NCBI GenBank assembly: GCA_038209745.1
Contig: JBBQXJ010000018.1
Coordinates: 1-60,948, forward strand
DNA: 60,948 bases
Direction: 5' to 3'
DNA from: Verrucomicrobiota bacterium
GTDB lineage: Bacteria > Verrucomicrobiota > Verrucomicrobiia > Limisphaerales > CANJSG01
Positions 4,148 to 35,609 of the stretch are shown one piece after another. The notes beneath the pieces are model-generated. The model saw only the letters and a program-made list of their open reading frames with translations, did no database searches and was not told the DNA's origin. A program made the position numbers and the translations under genes. The stretch's first letter is position 1. The number at the start of each line of letters is the position of its first letter.

Positions 4148-7100
4148 CTACGGGCGCACTTGGAGACGGATGATGCCGGAGTTGGATTGCGCAGCGGACG
4201 GGAGTTCCAGCTCACCCACGGTGTTGGTCGCGCGCAGCCAATCGCGGAGAATGTTCCAGGTGGCCAGGTCGGTGGTCTGCTGGAGCCGGTAGGAAAGACC
4301 GATGGTCTGGGACCAACGCAACACGACGCCGTTGGCGGAGGCCATGGGTTCGGCGTCGAGCGACAGAAAGGATGCCGGATCCTTCGGATCGGTGCCGGCG
4401 AGGAATTCGTCGCGGTCCGAAAACCCGTCGTGGTCGGAATCGCGCGAGGGCGGATAGACGGGATCGACCTTGCCGAAGTGGGCCATTTCCCAGAGGTCGG
4501 AGATGCCGTTGGTGTTGGAGTCGGGGAAGACGTAGTTCGCCGAGAAGGTCGCGGTGCCGTCCTGCACCAGCGTCTGGGTGGCGGGTGGCGGCGTCAGGTA
4601 GTTCGTCACGGTGTTCCACGTGAGGGTGTAGTCGCCGGGCGGCACGTTGGTGAAGCCGACTCTGTAGCCGGCGCCGACGAGATTGGTGGGACCGGCCAGC
4701 GTGAAGGTCGCCTGCGAGAGGTTGTTGGTCACTCGGATCACGCTGCCTGTCTTGGGGTCGACGGTCTCGATGCGGACGTCGTCGACCAGCCAGCCCGGGC
4801 GGTTCTCGGGCGAGAAGGAGAGCAATTCGTAGTAGAACGCGATGCGGACGACGCTGCCCACGTAGGGCGTCAGGCTGAGCACGTGCTCTTCCCAGCCGGC
4901 GCTCGATGGATTCGAGGAGAGATCCTCGAGGAGGATCCAGGCAGCACCGCTGTTGGTGGTGATGTAGACTTGGGCGATCTCGCCGATGTCCGAGCTATAC
5001 GCGGGGAAACCATAGGCGGTCTGGAACCGCAGGGTCGAGGCGGCCAGGCCGTTGAGATCGATGCCGGGGGCGATGAGCATGGAATGGGACTGGTCGTAGC
5101 TGCCGCCCATGAGATTGATGCCCCAGACCTTGCTGCCGGAATAGGCCGTCACGCCGAGCGGGCCGGACGGTGTGCCGAGCTCCCAGCTCTTGGAGGAGCC
5201 TTCGCCGTCCACGACCGTCCAGTTGGTCGCGGAGTTCTCCAGGTTGTCGAACCACGGAGGGACGATCGGTTTCAGGGTGCGTAGGGTGTAGAGGCGGCCG
5301 CCGTTGTTATCGACCACGGTGTTGCCCGCCTCGTCGCGGCTGACGAGCTGGTAGTAGTAGAGCCGGTCGGGAGCCAGACCCGAGAGGGAGAGCGTGTGGA
5401 CGACGTCGAAGTCGGCCGTGTATTCCGTCCGTCCGAGGAACGTCGATTCTCCGTACTGGACCAGCGCATCGGCGGCCTCGTCGGTGTTCCAGCCGATGAC
5501 GGCCTCGCCGTATTCCACCTGGATGTTCCGGCCGGTGATGACCGGCGGGGCGACGTCGACCACGGCCCGGGCGCGCACGGTTTGGCCGGCGGAGGCGTCG
5601 GCGTATTCGATCCAGAGGTCGTCACCGGCAGCGGCGCGGAGACGGTTGCCGCTGGGAGTGCTGCTGCCGGGGTCGATCGGCACCGTGCCTCGGAACAATC
5701 CTTTGCGGACCGTCTCGTGCAGGACCACGGCGACGCCGTTGGTGAGCGTGGTGCTGAAGGCCTTGACGGTGACGCTGCCAGTGCCGGCGAGGTCTTCGTC
5801 GCCCACTTCCACGATCATCTGCGAGGGCAGGGTGTAGGCGCCACGATCGAGGGCGAGGTTGCCGATGCCGTTGAGTCCGGGCACGAGGAAGCTCAGGGCG
5901 CGTCCCAGCACGGTGGATCGGTTGTCCGGCGCGGGATCGGTCATTGAGATCGCCTCCAGCGGGAACGACATCAACAGCGTGCGGTTGGTGCTGTCCTGGC
6001 CCACGCGGGGAAACCGGACTCCGCCCGCCTGGAAGCTCGCGGTGTCGAGGAACACCGGAGCGGCATTGGTGTAGGCGTGGACCGTATCGGACACGTCGGG
6101 GCCGAGATCGAGGGCCTCGAAGCTGGGGAACCGGGTGTAGTCGAGGCTGAGGAGCATGCCGGACGAAACCGGATCGCCGTCCACCCCTTCGACCTGGGGC
6201 AGTTTCACGTCGGCATTGAACGAGCGGACCTTGAAGACATTGGTCACGAAATTGAACGCCCCGTCGTTGGTCAGGCGGCTGAGGATCTCCATCGAAGCCA
6301 TCATGAAGGAGCCGCCCGTGTTGAGGTAGTTCGTGATGGCGGTGCGCTCGGACAGGTTGAGGGAGTTGTTCGGCACCCAGAAACTGTCGTTCACGCGCCA
6401 GAGCACGCAGCGGAAGGGCGAGAGGTCGGCGGCGGTGGGCGAGCGGCCCTGGTCCGCGACGTTCCAGACATCGAAGCCCACGCCGATCTGCCGCAGCGCG
6501 TCGGTGTATTCGCTCACGGGAATGGGCGCCGTGTCGTCCAGTCCGCCGCTGTCGGCGTAGCTGTTCACCACCAGCACCGGCGGAGCGCCCAGCGCGATGA
6601 GACTGAAGAGCTGACCTGCGTTGTCGTTGGTCCGGATGTTGCCCGCCTCGTCCGAGGAAACGACGTAGAACTGATAGCTTTGATTGCGCTCCAGTTTGGA
6701 CAGCGGGACGGAATGGGACGTGGCGAATCCGCGATTCGTGACGAGCTGGGTGACCGTTCCGGCCGGGCCGAAGACAACCAGGGAGGTGGCCGGTTCGTCC
6801 GTGGTCCAGTGTACGGCGGTGCGGCCGAACTGCGCGTCCGTCCCGACCGCGCCGATGACCGGGGCGGTGAGATCGGCGACCGCATGGGCGGTGCGGGCCA
6901 GCGCCGGGCTGGCATCCTGGTAGGTGGCCGTGATCGCACCGCCGTCGGCGATCTGGAGACGGCCATCGACGGCGGCGGCTCCGAGAACGGTCGCGATGGA
7001 ATTGGTGAAGACGCCGCCGGTGCCGCTGGCGACGAGGGTGATCGATTCGCCGGCGGTTTCGATCGAGCTGCTGATCAGGACGCTCGCGGTCGGATGGCCG

Positions 7101-29022: not shown

Positions 29023-32000
29023 ATGATCGAGATCCCGAAGGCCTACGAGCCCCAGTCCGTTGAATCGAAGTGGTATGAGTTCTGGGACCAGAACGGCTGC
29101 TTCACCGCAGATCCCGCCCGCGTATCCGACGCCCGCCCGGCCTATTCCATCGTCATCCCTCCGCCCAACGTCACCGGCGTCCTCACCCTCGGCCACGTCC
29201 TGAACAACACGATCCAGGACATCCTCGCCCGGAAGGCCCGCATGGACGGCAAGGAGGTCCTCTGGCTCCCCGGCACCGACCACGCCGGCATCGCCACCCA
29301 GAACGTCGTCGAGAAGACCCTGAAGAAGGCCGGCGAAATCAAGCACCGCGACGACCTCGGCCGCGAGGCGCTCGTGGCGCGCATCTGGGAGTGGAAGGAG
29401 AAATACGGCGGCATCATCCTCAAGCAGCTTCGCGCGCTCGGCGCCTCCTGTGACTGGACCCGCACCCGCTTCACCATGGACCCGGAGTATTCCCGCTGCG
29501 TCCAGAAGGTCTTCGTCGATCTCTACAAGAAGGGCCTGATCTACCGCGGCAAACGCATGGTCAACTGGTGCCCCGGCTCGCTCACCGCGTTGTCCGACGA
29601 GGAAGTGACCATGAAGGAGCAGAAGGGCTTCATGTACTATTTCCGCGTGGAAGTGGTGGAGCTAGTGGCCCAGCCGGCCTCGGCTGTTGACCCTGCGGGC
29701 GGGGGGGGGCTCAGCACGGACCCAGGCGAGGGCGCCTGTGCCACTAGCCAAACCCTAGCCATCAAGCCCACGGGCATCTTCCTCACCATCGCCACCACCC
29801 GTCCGGAGACCATCCCGGCCGACACCGCCGTGGCGGTGAATCCCAAGGACCCACGCTACCAGCACCTCATCGGCAAACACGTCATCAAGGCGCTGCCACT
29901 GGATGTGCCGAAGGAATTGCGCGTCATCCCGATCATCGCGGATGAACACGTGGACTTCGAGTTCGGCACCGGCGTGCTGAAGGTCACGCCTGCGCACGAC
30001 AAGGCGGACTACGAGATCGGCCTGCGGCACAAGCTGCCGGTCATCGACGTGCTCACGCCGGACGGAAAGATGACGGCCGAAGCCGGCGCCGATCTGGCCG
30101 GACTGGACCGCTTCGTGGCACGCAAGAAATCGGCGGAACTGTTGGAAGCCGCCGGCGCGTTGGAAAAGGCCGAGCCCTACACGAACAACGTGGGTTTCAG
30201 CGAACGCGCCGATGTGCCCATCGAACCGCGCCTGAGCGAGCAATGGTTCCTCAAGTATCCCAGCGTGGAGGCGAGCAAGGCGTGCGTGGTCTCGGGAACG
30301 GGGAGCACAGGCGCCCCGCCTGTTGCCGACCGCGCCCTCGCGGTCGGCGCGGGAGCCGCGCAGGCGGACGGAGCATCGGTTGTCGGAGCGCGTGCCGGAG
30401 TCGAAGGCGGGGCGCCGGGGACGGCGCCCGGGGCGGGCGCGGTCCCCGGCGCGGATGCGATGCGGTTCTATCCGGATCGCTGGGCCAAGGTCTATGACCA
30501 CTGGATGGGCGGCATCCAGGACTGGTGCATCAGCCGCCAGCTCTGGTGGGGGCACCGGATTCCGGTGTGGACGTTGCCGCTACACGTCTCAGGAAATGAA
30601 GTCGCCCAGCAATTGAGAGACTATTTCAAGGAGTGGGGCATCCCAAGTGAGTATGTGTTCATTGAGGTTATCCAATCCAAACCAGACTGCGGAGATACGA
30701 TTCGCTTTCTGACGAGCAGTGATGAGGCCGACGCAGCCTCAGCGAAACTCAACAGCTTTTTTCAGTTCGGTAAGTTTGACGCTTCGCTCCACGAGGGATT
30801 CCCGACGGCGCACGCCAAAGATTTGGCGAGAGCAATAATGGATGGGCCTGCCGCACATCAGGCGACCCAAGACCCCGACGTCCTGGACACTTGGTTCAGC
30901 TCCTGGCTCTGGCCGTTCGCCACGATGGGCTGGACGGGCGACAAATCCCAAGACTCCAAGAACCCAACCCTCCAGGCGTTCTACCCCACGACCGATCTCG
31001 TCACCGGGCCGGACATCATCTTCTTCTGGGTCGCCCGCATGATCATGGCCGGCTACGAGTGGATGGGCGATCTGCCGTTCCGGAACGTCTATTTCACCGG
31101 CATCATCCGCGACAAACAGGGCCGCAAGATGTCGAAGTCGCTCGGCAACTCGCCCGACCCGCTCGATCTCATTTCCCAGTATGGCGCCGACGCGCTGCGC
31201 TTCGGCGTGATGCGCGCCGCGCCGCTCGGCCAGGACGTGCTCTTCGACGAACAGACCGTCGAACTGGGTCGCAACTTCTGCAACAAGCTCTGGAACGCCT
31301 GCCGCTTCCGCCAGATGCAGGGCGGCGCAGGCCTAGTGGCCCAGCCGCCCTCGGCTGAATTGGTAGTGGGGCAGACGCCTTCGTCTGCCTCGGTCCAACA
31401 GGCGCCCCGGCCTGTTGACCCTGAGAATGGAACAGCCGGGGGCGCCTGTGCCACTACGTCGACCGGCGACGACGTCTGCGGCGAGATCGATCCCACGCTC
31501 CTCACCTCGGACGACAAGTGGATCCTGCTCCGGCTCGACCAGGCCATCCGCGAAGTCACCCAGGCCTTCGCCGATTACAAGTTCAGCGACGCCACGGCCA
31601 CGCTCTACCGCTTCTTCTGGAGCGAGTATTGCGACTGGTATGTCGAGGCTTCGAAGGCCGCGTTCTACGGCACGGACGACACCCTCAAGGCCAACAAGCT
31701 GGCGGTGATCGACTTCGTCCTCGGCCATCTGCTGCGCGTCTTCCATCCGTTCCTGCCCTTCATCACCGAAGAGCTGTGGCACAGCATGGGATTCTCCAAG
31801 GAAATGCCCGAAAGCCAGGGCGGCAAGACCATCATGTTCGCCGCGTGGCCCAAGCCTTTCACCGACGAAGAGAAGAGCTACTTCCAGCTGGACGACGCGG
31901 CCGACACGATCGCCCAGGCGAAATACGATCTCGTGGTCCTCGCCCGCGCGCTCAAGCGCGACTGCAACATCGATCCTGCCAAGCGGGTGAAGTTCGTCGT

Positions 32001-32367
32001 GCGACCGGCTGGGCCGATGCCTGCGGCCGAGGTCGAGGTGCTGCGCATCCTGCTCAGCGCCGAGTCGCTGGACGTTGTTGGTTCCGATTGGCAGCCGGAG
32101 AAGGGGACGCCGATGAAGGCCAATGCGCTGGGCGAACTCTACCTGCCGCTGACCGGCTTGATCGACTTCGCCGCCGAGCGGGTGCGATTGACCAAGGAAC
32201 TGGAGAAGATCGCCTCCGAGATCGAGAAGGTGCAGTCCAAGCTGGCCAACCCTAACTTCGCCCAGAAGGTGCCGGCCAAGGTGCTGGAAGAACACCAGCT
32301 GCGCCTCGCCGATTGGCAGGCCAAGGAAGGGCAGATCCAGGCGGCGCTGGCGAGTTTGCCGGAGTAG
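29023..32367 (+). CDS. valS: Valine--tRNA ligase, with four in-frame insertions
   Basis: PPPNVTG, TLGH (HIGH variant), DHAGIATQ, TTRPET, DWCISRQLWWGH, DVLDTWFSS, KMSKS, C-terminal coiled coil. Confidence 0.98.
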   Translation: MIEIPKAYEPQSVESKWYEFWDQNGCFTADPARVSDARPAYSIVIPPPNVTGVLTLGHVLNNTIQDILARKARMDGKEVLWLPGTDHAGIATQNVVEKTLKKAGEIKHRDDLGREALVARIWEWKEKYGGIILKQLRALGASCDWTRTRFTMDPEYSRCVQKVFVDLYKKGLIYRGKRMVNWCPGSLTALSDEEVTMKEQKGFMYYFRVEVVELVAQPASAVDPAGGGGLSTDPGEGACATSQTLAIKPTGIFLTIATTRPETIPADTAVAVNPKDPRYQHLIGKHVIKALPLDVPKELRVIPIIADEHVDFEFGTGVLKVTPAHDKADYEIGLRHKLPVIDVLTPDGKMTAEAGADLAGLDRFVARKKSAELLEAAGALEKAEPYTNNVGFSERADVPIEPRLSEQWFLKYPSVEASKACVVSGTGSTGAPPVADRALAVGAGAAQADGASVVGARAGVEGGAPGTAPGAGAVPGADAMRFYPDRWAKVYDHWMGGIQDWCISRQLWWGHRIPVWTLPLHVSGNEVAQQLRDYFKEWGIPSEYVFIEVIQSKPDCGDTIRFLTSSDEADAASAKLNSFFQFGKFDASLHEGFPTAHAKDLARAIMDGPAAHQATQDPDVLDTWFSSWLWPFATMGWTGDKSQDSKNPTLQAFYPTTDLVTGPDIIFFWVARMIMAGYEWMGDLPFRNVYFTGIIRDKQGRKMSKSLGNSPDPLDLISQYGADALRFGVMRAAPLGQDVLFDEQTVELGRNFCNKLWNACRFRQMQGGAGLVAQPPSAELVVGQTPSSASVQQAPRPVDPENGTAGGACATTSTGDDVCGEIDPTLLTSDDKWILLRLDQAIREVTQAFADYKFSDATATLYRFFWSEYCDWYVEASKAAFYGTDDTLKANKLAVIDFVLGHLLRVFHPFLPFITEELWHSMGFSKEMPESQGGKTIMFAAWPKPFTDEEKSYFQLDDAADTIAQAKYDLVVLARALKRDCNIDPAKRVKFVVRPAGPMPAAEVEVLRILLSAESLDVVGSDWQPEKGTPMKANALGELYLPLTGLIDFAAERVRLTKELEKIASEIEKVQSKLANPNFAQKVPAKVLEEHQLRLADWQAKEGQIQAALASLPE
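29661..29748. repeat. In-frame palindromic element in valS (GTGGCACAGGCG family)
   Basis: Terminal arms gctagtggcccagccggcctcggctg / caggcgagggcgcctgtgccactagc are complementary at 22 of 26 positions. Confidence 0.9.
30300..30447. repeat. In-frame palindromic element in valS (GGGGAGCAC...GTCCCC type)
   Basis: Hairpins acaggcg-ccc-cgcctgt and gccgaccgcg-ccct-cgcggtcggc; encodes an Ala/Gly/Pro-rich insert. Confidence 0.8.
31333..31457. repeat. In-frame compound palindromic element in valS (GTGGCACAGGCG family)
   Basis: Begins ctagtggcccagccgccctcggctg, ends ggcgcctgtgccactac, and shares ctgttgaccctg with the 29661 copy. Confidence 0.9.
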
Positions 32368-32405
32368 GCCTCTCGGACCGTTTGAGAGTCCGGTCTGTCG
32401 GCAGG

Positions 32406-32555
32406 GGTAGCGCGATCGCTCCGGCCGAGCCGTCGTTTGATCTGCTGACGACGGGACCGCAGCTCGGGCGACTCCGGAGCGTTCCGGAGTCGCCCGTGAA
32501 GCCGGCTCGGACCTCATCCGCCCCAAGGCGGCTTGGCCGGAGCCGTCGCCCTACC
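32406..32555. repeat. REPIN-like doublet (GGTAGGGCGACGGCTCCGGCC family) between valS and ileS
   Basis: Inverted arms ggtagcgcgatcgctccggccgagccg / cggcttggccggagccgtcgccctacc; the right arm matches 55946-55970 at 24 of 25 positions. Confidence 0.8.
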
Positions 32556-32624
32556 TGCCGCCTCGTATTTGCCCTTTGATGCCCCGAATAGGGGTTGGTA
32601 GCGTCCGCCCTCCGATTCCGCCGT

Positions 32625-35609
32625 ATGGACTACAAGAACACGCTGAACCTTCCGCAGACCGGCTTCGCCATGAAGGCCGACCTGGTGACCCGCGAACCGC
32701 AGCGCCTCGCCCAGTGGGAGACCGCCGATCTCTACGGCCGCATCCGCGCCGCGCGCGTCGGTCGCGAGAAGTTCGTCCTGCACGACGGCCCGCCCTTCGC
32801 CAACGGCGATGTCCACGTCGGCACCGCGCTGAACAAGATCCTCAAGGACATCATCATCAAGTTCCGCACCCTGGAGGGGATGGACGCGCCCTACGTGCCT
32901 GGCTGGGACTGCCACGGCTTGCCCATCGAGTCCAAGGTCACCCAGGAACTTCGCGCCGCCGGCCACACCGATGCCGACGCGGCCACGATCCGTTCCGCCT
33001 GCGACGCCTATGCGCGCAAATACATCGATCTGCAGCGCGGCCAGTTCAAGCGCCTCGGCGTGCTGGGCGATTGGGAGAATCCCTACCTCACGCTGGACAA
33101 GACCTACGAAGCCGAGGAGCTGCGGATGTTCGCCGACATCGTGGAGAAGGGCTTCGTCTATCGCGGCAAGAAGCCGGTCTATTGGAGCATCCCGTTCAAG
33201 ACCGCGTTGGCCGAGGCCGAGGTGGAATACGCCGACCACGTCAGCCAGAGCGTCTATGTGAAGTTCCCCGTCGTCGGCACGCCCAACACCTGGGTGCTGA
33301 TCTGGACGACGACGCCGTGGACGCTGCCCGCGAACCTCGCCGTCGCCTTCAATCCGCGCCTCTTCTACTCCTGCGTCTCCGGTCCGGACGGCAGCTACTA
33401 CATGGCGAACGATCTGCTCGGAACGGTCAGCGAAAAGCTCGGCTGGTCCGCCTATCAGATCCAGCACACCGCGTCGGCCGCGGAACTGGCCGCGCTGGAA
33501 TACCGCCATCCGTTCTGCGCCCGCACCGGCCAGCTCTTCCCCGCCGACTTCGTGGAGAACAGCACCGGCACCGGCTTCGTCCACATCGCGCCCGGCCACG
33601 GCATGGACGACTACCAGCTCGGTCTGAAGGTCGGCCTGCCGGTCTATTGTCCGGTGAACGACGAAGGCAAACTCGCCCCGACCGACGATTTGCCAGCGGA
33701 TCAGCAATTGCCTGAATCGCTCGTCGGCAAATCCGTTCTTTCCAAAGGCGGCCGTTCCGATGCGAACGACGCCGTGCTGGCGTTGTTGACCGAGAAGAAC
33801 GTCCTCGCCCATCGCGAAGACTATTCCCACAGCTACCCGCACTGCTGGCGCAGCAAGACGCCGATCATCTTCCGCGCGGTCGACCAGTGGTTCATCAAGA
33901 TCGATCACGAAGTCGGATCCCCGATGCTCGATGCCGGATCTGGTATCGGGAACCAGGCATCCGGGATGACGTTCCGGCAAATGGCCCTCTCCGAGATCGA
34001 TCGGGTGAAGTGGATTCCCGACTGGGGCATCAACCGCATCAAGGGCGCCGTGCAGACGCGCCCCGATTGGTGCATCAGCCGCCAGCGCACCTGGGGCGTG
34101 CCCATCCCTGCGTTCTACGACGCGGACAAGACCCCGATCCTCAATGCCGAGATCATCCGCAACGTCGCGAAGCTGATCGAGGAACACGGTTCCAACGTAT
34201 GGTTCGCCAGCTCGTTCGAAGAACTCTGGGCCAAGGTGAAGCCCACCGATTGGACCGGTTCGATGCCTGTCTCCAAGTCGTCCGACACGCTCGACGTGTG
34301 GATTGATTCCGGCAGCTCCAGCCGCGCCGTTCTGATGAAGCGCGAGGAGTTGCAGCATCCTCCGGGCGCCGCGCCCAAGGACACCTGGCAGGCCGACGTC
34401 TACCTCGAGGGCTCCGACCAGCACCGAGGCTGGTTCCAGTCGTCGCTCTTGCTCTCGCTCGCCGGGAATGGCGCCGCGCCCTACAAGACCGTCTTGACGC
34501 ACGGCTTCATGGTGGACGAAGACCGGGAGAAGATCTCCAAGTCCAAGCAGGGGGCCGGCGGCTATCAGAAGCCCCAGACCGCCGACCGTTTCGTCAAAGA
34601 CTACGGCGCCGACGTGATCCGTCTCTGGGTCGCCTCGCAGGACTATCGCAGCGACATCGTGGTCAGCGAGGAACGGCTCAAGAAAGTCGGCGAGACCTAC
34701 CGCAACATCCGCAACTGCCTGCGCTACCAGCTCTCGAACCTCTACGACTTCAATCCAGGCGGAGCGGCCGGCTCTGGCTCTGGTAGTGGCACAGGCGCCC
34801 CCGCCTGTGACCCAGTCCGGCAGGCGCCCCCGCCTGCCGAAGCTACTGCGGGCGGACAGGCCGTTTCCGACGACCAGTTGACCGGATTGGACCGGTGGAT
34901 TCTCGGCGAGTTCGCCGTGTTGGAAGCCGACGTGAAGGCCGCCTACGACGCCTACGAATTCCACATCGTCTATCAGAAGCTCAGCCAGTTCGTCGCGGTG
35001 CAGCTCTCCTCCATCTACCACGATGTGGTGAAGGACCGGCTCTACACCGACGCCGCGAATTCCCCCCGTCGCCGCAGCACCCAGACGGCGCTGCACCGGA
35101 TCATCAGCGGCCTTTGCCAGATGCTGAGCCCGATGCTCGTCTTCACCGCCGACGAAGCCTGGGAAGCGATCCCCGGCAAGCCGACCGCCAGCGTGCACGA
35201 AAGCGAATGGACGCCCTCCGCGCCCGCCAGCACGGAAGCGACCAAGCTCGATTGGCAGACGATCTTCCGCATCCGCGAGCAGGTCCTGCCGGTGCTGGAA
35301 AAGCAGCGTCAGGCGAAGGTCATCGGCAAGTCGCTCGAAGCCGTCGTCTACCTGAACCTCGCGGCCGAGGAACAGGCCATCGGGAGCCGTTTGGCCGCCG
35401 AGCTCACGGAAATATTGAACGTTTCCGCCGTGGTCTTCGGCGCTCGGGCGGCCGGCGACGAATCCACCGATCCGATCGTCGCTCGCCACAGCCAGGAAAC
35501 CGGTCGCGTGAAGTGCGACCGCTGCTGGCATTGGGAGAACGACGTGGGCCAGAACGCGGAGCATCCGACCCTGTGCGGTCGCTGCGTCGTGGCGGTGAAG
35601 TTGAGCTGA
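32625..35609 (+). CDS. ileS: Isoleucine--tRNA ligase (type 1), with two in-frame insertions
   Basis: LHDGPPFANG, HVGT, GWDCHGLPIE, WTTTPWTLP, DWCISRQR, EGSDQHRGWF, KISKS, C-terminal CDRC..CGRC zinc finger. Confidence 0.98.
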   Translation: MDYKNTLNLPQTGFAMKADLVTREPQRLAQWETADLYGRIRAARVGREKFVLHDGPPFANGDVHVGTALNKILKDIIIKFRTLEGMDAPYVPGWDCHGLPIESKVTQELRAAGHTDADAATIRSACDAYARKYIDLQRGQFKRLGVLGDWENPYLTLDKTYEAEELRMFADIVEKGFVYRGKKPVYWSIPFKTALAEAEVEYADHVSQSVYVKFPVVGTPNTWVLIWTTTPWTLPANLAVAFNPRLFYSCVSGPDGSYYMANDLLGTVSEKLGWSAYQIQHTASAAELAALEYRHPFCARTGQLFPADFVENSTGTGFVHIAPGHGMDDYQLGLKVGLPVYCPVNDEGKLAPTDDLPADQQLPESLVGKSVLSKGGRSDANDAVLALLTEKNVLAHREDYSHSYPHCWRSKTPIIFRAVDQWFIKIDHEVGSPMLDAGSGIGNQASGMTFRQMALSEIDRVKWIPDWGINRIKGAVQTRPDWCISRQRTWGVPIPAFYDADKTPILNAEIIRNVAKLIEEHGSNVWFASSFEELWAKVKPTDWTGSMPVSKSSDTLDVWIDSGSSSRAVLMKREELQHPPGAAPKDTWQADVYLEGSDQHRGWFQSSLLLSLAGNGAAPYKTVLTHGFMVDEDREKISKSKQGAGGYQKPQTADRFVKDYGADVIRLWVASQDYRSDIVVSEERLKKVGETYRNIRNCLRYQLSNLYDFNPGGAAGSGSGSGTGAPACDPVRQAPPPAEATAGGQAVSDDQLTGLDRWILGEFAVLEADVKAAYDAYEFHIVYQKLSQFVAVQLSSIYHDVVKDRLYTDAANSPRRRSTQTALHRIISGLCQMLSPMLVFTADEAWEAIPGKPTASVHESEWTPSAPASTEATKLDWQTIFRIREQVLPVLEKQRQAKVIGKSLEAVVYLNLAAEEQAIGSRLAAELTEILNVSAVVFGARAAGDESTDPIVARHSQETGRVKCDRCWHWENDVGQNAEHPTLCGRCVVAVKLS
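34783..34847. repeat. In-frame palindromic element in ileS (GTGGCACAGGCG family)
   Basis: gtagtggcacaggcgccccc is the exact 20-nt reverse complement of 31438-31457 in valS; two caggcg-ccc-cgcctg-type hairpins. Confidence 0.9.

Follow-up and report, generated by a model that had tools for sequence, protein, structure and literature searches.

Classical REPINs are extragenic, and the classical RAYT is a free-standing gene encoding 150–330 aa. The REPIN-RAYT systems, or REPtrons, are reportedly those of Nunvar 2010, Bertels & Rainey 2011 and Ton-Hoang 2012, and the structure PDB 4ER8 is that of Messing 2012. Within genes, the closest described repeats are those of Opitutus terrae, for which passages of Di Nocera, De Gregorio & Rocco (2013, BMC Genomics 14:522, PMC3733652) report about 70 intragenic GTAG REPs (GTAG-17, -18 and -19), alongside REPs that lie within genes for tRNA synthetases in another three species, and a degeneracy of the head that includes GTGG in O. 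terrae. Many of the O. terrae copies are in frame, add 7–50 aa, and often lie in large replication or repair proteins (PMC3733652, as far as those passages go). In-frame REPs within genes are therefore not new in themselves, and a sequence-only reading of the DNA described here, which took coding insertions to be known mainly from Rickettsia, was mistaken on this point. The Rickettsia palindromic elements (RPE) themselves (Ogata 2002; Claverie & Ogata 2003, both as reported in passages of PMC3733652) occur in frame in functional genes, including those for DnaE and tRNA-modifying enzymes.

The window, by which we mean the whole stretch of DNA analysed, comprises 60,948 nt of the forward strand of contig JBBQXJ010000018.1, from assembly GCA_038209745.1 of a Verrucomicrobiota bacterium (4.58 Mb in 140 contigs, 63% G+C). 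The features relevant to the repeat family described here, family A, are as follows.

29023..32367, + strand: valS, valyl-tRNA synthetase, 1114 aa (open reading frame and translation)
29661..29766, + strand: valS site 1, family A REPIN-like insert, aa 214–249 (motif matches, inverted repeat)
30298..30456, + strand: valS site 2, insert of ~53 aa, 82% G+C (contains one copy of a second repeat family, family B)
31327..31461, + strand: valS site 4, family A composite insert, aa about 769–813 (motif matches)
32625..35609, + strand: ileS, isoleucyl-tRNA synthetase, 994 aa (translation; Pfam tRNA-synt_1, Anticodon_1, zf-FPG_IleRS)
34761..34859, + strand: ileS family A insert, aa 713–744 (unit match to consensus, empty site in relatives)
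29663 (+), 29736 (−), 31334 (+), 31446 (−) and 34784 (+): matches to TAGTGGCMCAG (pattern search of the window)

All five TAGTGGCMCAG matches fall within valS or ileS; 0.01 were expected in the window, and five were reached in 0/100 shuffles. A motif search of the 60,948 nt found no family A copy between genes, so the sequence-only reading was right to report none in the window, but intergenic copies are present elsewhere in the genome. The same reading had recognised repeat copies in both synthetase genes; these are indeed there, although comparison with relatives carries the inserts slightly beyond the cores it delimited, to approximately the limits listed above. Profile scans identified tRNA-synt_1, Anticodon_1 and Val_tRNA-synt_C domains in ValRS, and comparison with T. 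thermophilus ValRS (1GAX) gave five matching blocks with four inserts between them; it is because of these four sites that the protein exceeds its shortest relatives (881–886 aa) by ~230 aa. Both reading frames remain open despite the inserts, and both enzymes retain their catalytic motifs, so the protein surface probably accommodates the inserts as loops. An AlphaFold2 model of full ValRS (16-sequence alignment; mean pLDDT 54, pTM 0.37) was too poor to place them, and in it aa 219–242 and 767–819 come out as coil of low confidence, with modelled strands or helices on either side.

The individual inserts differ in layout. valS site 1 encodes LVAQPASAV..GEGACATSQTLAIK, ending ..GEGACATS, has inverted arms (29661–29686 and 29723–29748) with 85% complementarity, and is an internally deleted form of a longer element found at the equivalent position in congener G005. 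Site 4, encoding LVAQPPSAELVVGQTPSS..GGACATT (LVAQPPSAE..GGACATT), is a composite in which two direct head-plus-hairpin units are followed by a hairpin and, beyond a spacer, by an inverted hairpin-plus-head. The ileS insert (..GSGSGSGTGAPACDPVRQAPPPAEATAGG.., or GSGTGAPACDP) uses a reading frame other than that of the valS copies; in it a head-plus-hairpin is followed by a spacer and another hairpin, which is the layout of the left end of the RAYT cassette described below. Its 24-nt unit at 34784–34807 has 0 mismatches to the family A consensus, and the insert shares 96.5% identity over 57 nt with a copy in leuS and 89% over 56 nt with the left flank of the RAYT. The ileS arm shares an exact 21-mer with the reverse complement of the valS site 4 arm, a match noticed over 20 nt in the sequence-only reading, whose translated peptides (LVAQP...GACAT in valS, GSGTGAPACDP in another frame of ileS) and observation that no stops or frameshifts result agree with ours. 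valS site 2 has family B arms at 30412–30430 and 30434–30452, 95% complementary, and by alignment its insert is also present in congener G004. Site 3 (30574–30858) was considered as repeat-derived and rejected, as it has no second copy anywhere in the genome. Neither a target-site duplication nor a defined target sequence was visible at valS site 1 or ileS; target-site duplication is, to our knowledge, not expected of Y1 enzymes. The insert junctions have drifted.

Across the genome, the family A unit has a (G/C/T)TAG-TGGC head and, after it, a hairpin with a 6–7-bp stem (CAGGCG-N4-CGCCTG). Allowing ≤4 substitutions from the 24-nt consensus, 29 units were found at 19 loci in 4.58 Mb, compared with a single match in the reversed-genome control. 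Copy number is low by the standards of REP families. Units begin with TAG in 16/29 cases (preceded by G, C or T), CAG in seven, TGG in five and AAG in one, so that a GTAG-like head, with degeneracy, stands beside the stem as in GTAG-type REPs. They occur singly, in direct pairs or in inverted pairs of 34 to about 140 bp, the inverted pairs being those of valS sites 1 and 4 and of C37, C4:86526, C48, C3 and C25, and intergenic copies have inverted-repeat architecture like that of the genic ones. As single-stranded DNA, four elements fold well below shuffled sequence (z = −5.8 to −9.0, including ileS at −5.8 and valS site 4 at −7.3, −43.9 kcal/mol); valS site 1 is the exception, with a weak z of −2.2. 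The family thus resembles the O. terrae GTAG REPs, as described in the passages cited, in being made of short stem-loops with GTAG-type heads, single or dimeric, and both hosts are Verrucomicrobia. A stem-loop palindrome, dispersed multiple copies, presence and absence among relatives and a flanked RAYT are all as in REP/REPIN families, and the valS and ileS segments belong to one such GTAG-headed family; the departure is one of location, 21/29 units lying within coding-like frames with Pfam-supported products, for which published precedents exist.

Comparison with relatives revealed that the sites are occupied only in some lineages. valS site 1 is empty (27–28 aa between anchors) in 13/27 aligned rows, including congeners G001, G002, G003 and G004; the ileS site is empty, with its flanks adjacent, in 13/16 relatives, and in congener G006 holds a longer family A element; the leuS copy is absent from G003 and G005. 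The valS, ileS and leuS segments are therefore insertions. Site 4 of valS holds 18–21 aa in 14/24 rows, family A being present also in G005, and a different palindromic element in G004 and G001c. Many additional family A copies are found in congeners. The four valS sites are hypervariable, relatives having different repeat families, different domains or no insert there, and that they can be filled by unrelated repeats or by whole domains hints that essential enzymes share permissive sites which insertions use again and again. When the window was compared with a contig from another metagenome run (X1), 13/19 differences fell within the inserts of sites 1 and 2, indicating that the inserts evolve under relaxed constraint.

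Coding DNA in this genome is not purged of family A copies. The 21 intragenic units (72%) lie in frame within 14 genes, whose coding status was judged by a GC3 > GC1 > GC2 pattern in open frames and by Pfam matches, and their share equals that of random genome positions (2198/3000, 73%). Reading frame is preserved by every coding copy. Hosts include ValRS, IleRS, LeuRS, DnaE, MutS, SMC, RapA, aconitase and pyruvate carboxylase; with synthetases accounting for only 3/14, and with intergenic copies besides, the earlier suggestion that synthetase genes are a special target does not hold. Family B provides an internal control for exclusion from genes within the same genome: its 24-nt core has 26 copies (0 in the control), of which 3/26 are intragenic, against 21/29 for family A, so exclusion of REPs from coding DNA is set by the repeat family and not by the host. 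As in O. terrae, the coding copies of family A are in frame, and the two genomes have hosts in common: an AcrB-type pump, a DEAD helicase, a UTP-glucose-1-phosphate uridylyltransferase-like protein and dnaE2 (PMC3733652, Additional file 3 part 1). The encoded peptides differ, O. terrae having VAGVADPGPGSASPA, VGPALAAG and GTGVPPV/HGRDARAT in the parts of that paper considered, where family A yields VVAQAPPPV, GSGTGAPAC and GGGACAT from its three frames; and Additional file 3 part 1 gives no synthetase hosts for O. terrae, where family A has three. The residues encoded by the three frames are all small and flexible.

Genic copies of family A are almost confined to very long proteins, with 19/21 coding units in open frames of ≥900 aa (21% of random coding positions), and use only 3/5 stop-free frames, 7/7 opposite-strand units being in one frame. 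Both biases might be expected had the inserts been co-opted and kept by selection, whether as DNA or RNA structures (affecting transcription or translation pausing or mRNA stability, or serving as gyrase or IHF-like sites) or as peptide loops altering the synthetases; the refilling of slots by different repeat families in different lineages would fit too, as would the fact that published REPs play such roles outside genes (Di Nocera 2013, PMC3733652, in the passages cited). Yet presence and absence vary among congeners with no compensation visible, substitutions cluster in the inserts, and valS site 1 has survived internal deletion with only a weak fold. We therefore regard co-option as unlikely, and the inserts are most likely tolerated passengers rather than new functional modules.

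A candidate for the enzyme that mobilises family A is found on C11, again within a gene.

C11:4518–5147: RAYT, Y1_Tnp domain, 210 aa (Pfam match inside a long open frame)

This RAYT lacks a start and a stop codon of its own, being an internal in-frame domain of a UDPGP-like protein of ~1400 aa, and has family A units and hairpins in inverted orientation on either side, at about 4463–4514 and 5149–5200. It scores 28 bits against Pfam Y1_Tnp (cut-off 23) and 58 bits against NCBIfam REP_Tyr_transpos, under the cut-off of 80. Its HUH motif (N126-H127-V128-H129) and Y187-I188 (the tyrosine of RYIxENP) are invariant in 15 embedded homologues and align with those of E. coli TnpA-REP (4ER8), which is also its best PDB match by sequence (E = 0.0037) and the top Foldseek match of its model (pLDDT 79; E = 1.6e-5, with a TM-score of only 0.42/0.53). 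Three further Y1_Tnp loci in the genome (C137, C12 and C23) were set aside as the cognate enzyme because family A units are absent nearby, although any of them might still be what mobilises family A. Judged from its flanking repeats and by analogy with published REP/RAYT pairs, the C11 RAYT is most likely the cognate enzyme of family A. Its bracketing by inverted family A units makes the short elements look like the two ends of the cassette with the enzyme missing, much as REPINs stand to a REPtron.

The account that we favour, and consider very probable as a whole, is that the family A copies are REP/REPIN elements, that the C11 RAYT is their likely cognate enzyme and that the inserts are tolerated as passengers. 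The RAYT would cut and rejoin hairpin-bearing single strands, thereby copying family A to new places. In this genome a copy that lands in a gene persists when it is read in one of the three used frames, comprises a multiple of three bases and falls within a large protein's variable loops or linkers. Placement of the RAYT inside the UDPGP-like protein would give it both expression and protection from deletion. It is quite unlikely, in our estimation, that family A spread instead by homologous recombination, gene conversion or another Y1 transposase, the embedded RAYT being an inactive, domesticated relic: the three further Y1_Tnp loci offer other candidates, turnover of the dnaE and valS slots could be conversion, and the RAYT falls under the NCBIfam cut-off, but the C11 RAYT alone is flanked by family A units, its HUH motif and tyrosine are invariant across the 15 homologues, and in relatives the flanking repeats switch along with the embedded RAYT lineage. 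A motif-flanked RAYT, the empty sites in relatives, the genome-wide copies and contigs from other sequencing that carry the inserts support the central claim of the sequence-only reading, that a REP-type mobile family adds in-frame peptides to housekeeping enzymes.

One DNA unit read in three frames, on both strands and in unrelated proteins, indicates homology at the level of DNA and not of protein. This matters since the peptides are of low complexity, all relatives are hypervariable at the insertion sites and the genome has 63% G+C, so that the segments could be taken for lineage-specific Gly/Ala/Pro-rich linkers, made by slippage or protein-level selection and alike in DNA through base composition and codon bias. 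The frame and orientation data already contradict such an origin, as do the exact 21-nt match in opposite orientation, the near-identity of the ileS and leuS copies, the excess of units over the control, the matching inverted-repeat architecture of intergenic copies and the family A units flanking the RAYT; we judge it very improbable.

Contigs from three other metagenome runs (X1, X4 and X9), which may share one sampling campaign, span the inserts. X1 contigs cross valS sites 1 and 4 gap-free (the latter over 31270–32918), and the ileS insert is spanned by contigs from all three runs. A one-base omission at 34810/34811 was considered as an ileS frameshift and rejected: it fits contigs of the copies in leuS or on C11, each of them a C shorter, and long contigs are gap-free there. 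The 15 listed joints that might represent excision or empty sites (there are 92 more) all have sides of <40 nt and resemble the synthetase genes of other organisms; contigs miss rare variants. Six RNA runs contained ≤0.11 of sampled words, and contigs of RNA run X20 were 90–95% like the window, as expected of relatives' sequence, with one match ending at 29666. Since contigs of other runs span the inserts gap-free, since orthologous inserts occur in G005 (valS) and G006 (ileS) and since frame is kept in all copies, it is hardly credible, for all that the assembly is in 140 contigs and relatives' assemblies often break inside valS, that metagenome assembly or binning mis-threaded repeats into these genes.

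The arrangement of the C11 RAYT is not confined to this genome. At least 305 long public proteins contain embedded RAYT domains, which cluster by host gene; the hosts are the UDPGP-like enzyme, a DinG/Rad3-type helicase and DnaE, with PriA, HsdR, pyruvate formate-lyase or AlaRS in occasional cases. No description of an in-frame RAYT inside a host gene was found by literature searches or in passages of PMC3733652, PMC6006769 and PMC5581495. Surveys of the RAYT transposase family dropped unexpectedly long proteins (Quentin 2018), which may explain why embedded RAYTs were missed.

Family A and its RAYT thus share features with several known systems. Like REPIN-RAYT systems and REPtrons, they combine inverted REP pairs with one HUH/Y1 transposase flanked by matching repeats, the fold and catalytic motifs of which match 4ER8; unlike the classical form, the repeats are 72% intragenic and the RAYT lies inside a protein of ~1400 aa. 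Like RPE, family A palindromes lie in frame in genes and are tolerated as extra peptide segments, but RPE-4 and RPE-6 are CGTC-type according to PMC3733652, so that their heads differ, and we do not class family A as an RPE. The RPE host moreover belongs to another phylum and is an intracellular parasite whose genome is reduced, and the passages of that paper report no associated RAYT. Like inteins, the embedded RAYT cassette is a selfish in-frame coding insert in essential proteins (DnaE, helicases), inherited with the host gene. Unlike inteins, it has no Hint match (none in Pfam scans of 14 repeat hosts and 19 embedded-RAYT hosts), its junctions are encoded by the repeats and there is no sign of protein splicing; the RAYT domain presumably stays in the mature host protein.

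What is less expected here is a transposase as an in-frame insert of a housekeeping protein, an arrangement shared by at least 305 public proteins. We suggest, tentatively and at slightly less than even confidence, that a REPIN-RAYT lineage of the Verrucomicrobiota has become a resident of genes, its transposase being made only as an in-frame domain of essential proteins and inherited long-term with the host gene, while its repeats colonise loops of long housekeeping proteins at an approximately unpurged rate. Such a refuge would be intein-like but would dispense with splicing: imprecise deletion would kill the host gene, and expression would come free. If the embedded domains are active, they would represent an undescribed route of persistence for a mobile-element enzyme and would supply the core proteins of replication and repair with new domains.

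The motif TAGTGGCMCAG matched the window five times against 0.01 expected, and 5/5 matches lay inside valS or ileS, where the sequence-only reading had placed palindromic repeat copies. In valS each of the two segments forms an inverted-repeat pair; in ileS a second hairpin comes after a head-plus-hairpin unit. An exact 21-mer of the ileS arm recurs as its reverse complement in a valS arm. Single-strand DNA folds of the elements at valS site 1, valS site 4 and ileS (z = -2.2, -7.3 and -5.8, respectively) complete the evidence on which that observation is confirmed. The class I signature motifs, as read from the translations, are kept in both enzymes (TLGH and KMSKS in ValRS, HVGT and KISKS in IleRS). 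Features in and outside the window are as follows.

29023-32367, strand +: valS, 1114 aa, Pfam-supported
30298-30456: valS site 2 insert, holding one copy of another repeat family (family B); core 24-mer 30424-30447, inverted arms 30412-30430 / 30434-30452
30574-30858 (aa 518-612): valS site 3, hypervariable, between the conserved RIPVW and QDPDVLDTWF motifs
32406-32432 / 32529-32555: arms of spacer inverted repeat 1, 85% complementary
32452-32478 / 32483-32509: arms of spacer inverted repeat 2, 78% complementary
32625-35609, strand +: ileS, 994 aa, Pfam-supported
C11:4463-5200 of this genome, G000 (locus L062, about 1385-2126), strand -: RAYT cassette, outside the window

A REP/MITE family had been proposed, and the repeat belongs to a GTAG-headed REP family (family A) with copies genome-wide: a search of the genome (4.58 Mb, 140 contigs, 63% G+C) recovered 29 units at 19 loci with ≤4 substitutions from the 24-nt consensus, against one in the reversed-genome control. 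Twenty-one units lie inside open frames whose G+C pattern is that of coding DNA and whose products are clear from Pfam, namely three synthetases (ValRS with three units, IleRS, LeuRS), DnaE, MutS, SMC, RapA, a UvrD/AddA-like helicase-nuclease, a DEAD/DUF3516 helicase, aconitase, pyruvate carboxylase, an AcrB-type pump, an ABC ATPase and a UDPGP-like protein. The remaining 8 units, at 5 loci, are intergenic or in unclear sequence, and include textbook inverted pairs (for example on contig C37, 113 bp, z = -9.0) and, on contig C48, a minimal hairpin of 34 bp. Units on the same strand as the gene are read as VVAQAPPPV (6 units) or GSGTGAPAC (8 units), and those on the opposite strand as GGGACAT (7 units); the TAG-containing frame is a stop, and two more open frames are unused. 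A repeat at the protein level is ruled out, since one DNA unit is read in three frames.

Placement was scored with one classifier for random positions and both families, a position being intragenic if it lay, away from the frame ends, in a spanning open frame of ≥150 aa with GC3 > GC1 > GC2. Family A units were intragenic in 21/29 cases (72%) and random genome positions in 2198/3000 (73%), so family A is not excluded from genes at all. Family B, whose core lies in valS site 2, was intragenic in only 3/26 copies (12%) and is like classical extragenic REPs in placement. The proteins that host family A are very long, 19/21 units lying in frames of ≥900 aa, compared with 21% of random coding positions. 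The suggestion that synthetases are a special target was not supported: class I synthetases make up 3/14 host genes, which is above chance, yet the hosts are mostly other large proteins, and the broader pattern is one of large multidomain housekeeping proteins rather than synthetases.

Comparison with relatives, in which empty sites were sought, establishes that the valS and ileS segments are insertions. ValRS was aligned over 27 rows (23 complete or near-complete genes, the rest fragments), and four insertion hot spots account for its length range of 881 to about 1400 aa within the order. Site 1 (aa 214-249) is empty in 13/27 rows, including congeners G001, G002, G003 and G004; the element there, bounded at the nucleotide level by GTGGTGGAG on one side and CCC..GGC..TTC on the other, is an internally deleted form of a longer family A element that congener G005 has at this position. 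At site 4 (aa about 769-813), 14/24 rows measure 18–21 aa; G005 also has family A there, and G004 and G001c have a different palindromic element. The flanks of IleRS aa 713-744 are adjacent in 13/16 relatives, with G002 and G011 uninformative at this site, and congener G006 has a longer family A copy there. Against T. thermophilus ValRS (1GAX), five blocks aligned and 4/4 inserts fell between them.

The inserts are borne out by other sequence data: in three sediment-metagenome runs (X1, X4 and X9, possibly of one campaign), Logan contigs run gaplessly across each insert and its flanks. Compared with one 1205-nt X1 contig, the window shows 19 differences, 13 of them within the inserts at valS sites 1 and 2, which points to relaxed constraint in the inserts.

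The site 2 insert of ValRS (82% G+C) is shared with congener G004, and 23/26 genome copies of family B lie outside coding-like frames. Site 3, at 52% G+C against 64% for the gene, is single-copy in the genome, and its sequence and length (40–226 aa) differ in every relative. Different repeat-encoded peptides also fill sites 1, 2 and 4 in relatives such as G027, G030, G011 and G001c (for example ..LSPxGGEGxGEG.., ..GSAGVPPA..AGRMPALP.. and ..EVGGMRYEG..HTSSLIPHTS..), so the slots turn over between repeat families. At sites 2 and 3, two relatives (G035, locus L024; G009, L029) carry in frame a match of ~200 aa to Pfam LPD3 (large polyvalent protein-associated domain 3), a family known in polyvalent proteins of phages and conjugative elements; here a whole mobile-element domain occupies slots used by repeats. 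Similar sequence is found at site 3 in G030 and G029. Two more inverted repeats, not of family A, lie in the valS–ileS spacer (32406-32555). Relatives' assemblies often end exactly at repeat copies inside valS or ileS (G005 C69:1-51 and several congener valS contigs), and insert counts from draft genomes are therefore lower bounds.

A RAYT flanked by the motif was sought, and one was found. Four loci in the genome matched Pfam Y1_Tnp, and of these only C11:4518-5147 has family A flanks, with head-plus-hairpin-plus-hairpin on one side and the inverted counterpart on the other; the cassette is the valS element architecture with an enzyme in the middle. The 210-aa domain looks catalytically intact, its HVH and the Tyr of RYIxENP being invariant in 15 homologues. 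It matched E. coli TnpA-REP (4ER8) in sequence (E = 0.0037) and as a predicted model (pLDDT 79; Foldseek E = 1.6e-5, TM 0.42/0.53), and scored 58 bits with NCBIfam REP_Tyr_transpos, below the 80-bit cut-off. It has neither start nor stop codon of its own and shares the frame of a 1405-aa UDPGP-like housekeeping protein, where it occupies the linker joining the two halves. Among 41 genomes searched, the gene carries the cassette in G000, G002, G004, G005, G006, G020, G035, G071, G102 and G080; congeners G001 and G003 have a short native linker instead, and the cassette is also absent in about 18 others. The earlier interpretation is partly supported: it stands as to a mobile REP family inserted in frame, now with a cognate-type RAYT, and is not supported as to synthetases.

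The embedded arrangement recurs in relatives and public proteins. Across 121 genomes from the order, the best-matching homologues of the RAYT domain all fell in long open frames (641–1446 aa), and those at ≤ about 42% identity mostly in frames of 215–400 aa, the size of free-standing RAYTs. Pfam hosts of 19 frames comprised UDPGP-like proteins, DinG/Rad3-type helicases, PriA, HsdR, a DUF1156 protein, pyruvate formate-lyase (PFL) and AlaRS. Among public proteins exceeding the query in length, at least 305 matched at E ≤ 1e-10, some with pipeline names such as ‘Rad3-related DNA helicase/REP element-mobilizing transposase RayT’; taxon labels, where present, were mostly Verrucomicrobiota (Limisphaerales, Chthoniobacteraceae). 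When 120 of these, among the matches listed, were pooled with 20 loci from this analysis, the domain was internal (≥60 aa on both sides) in 128/140, and hosts were DinG-like (53), UDPGP-like (53), DnaE (18) and others (16). A quick maximum-likelihood tree of 136 domains, related sequences that are not independent, grouped by host gene with 10 label changes against 63.9 in shuffles, a pattern that fits prolonged stays within a given host gene and rare jumps between hosts. Inverted repeats of ≥20 nt, longer than any shuffle and in several cases with GTAG-type heads, flank 10/16 embedded RAYTs examined; among the same 16, flanking repeats were no longer than shuffles in the PFL, AlaRS and DUF1156 cases, one HsdR and one UDPGP.

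Repeats inside genes are real here, but known in kind. In the parts consulted, Di Nocera et al. 2013 (PMC3733652) define GTAG- and CGTC-tagged REPs, report that three other species have REPs in tRNA synthetase genes, and describe Rickettsia RPEs as the CGTC counterpart; family A is alike in kind, differing in repeat sequence and in its new hosts. Full-text searching of the literature turned up no account of a RAYT embedded in frame in a host gene. Quentin et al. 2018 (PMC6006769) discarded unexpectedly long proteins from their survey, ascribing them to gene fusions or annotation errors, and a term search of Bertels et al. 2017 (PMC5581495) returned no mention of fusions. We propose that the C11 RAYT, translated as part of its host protein, would mobilise family A via single-stranded hairpin intermediates, in-frame copies being presumably tolerated passengers in surface loops, and that residence inside essential genes would shield both repeats and RAYT from deletion. 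It is the in-frame transposase, together with the absence of coding-DNA avoidance, that sets this case above a routine REP report.
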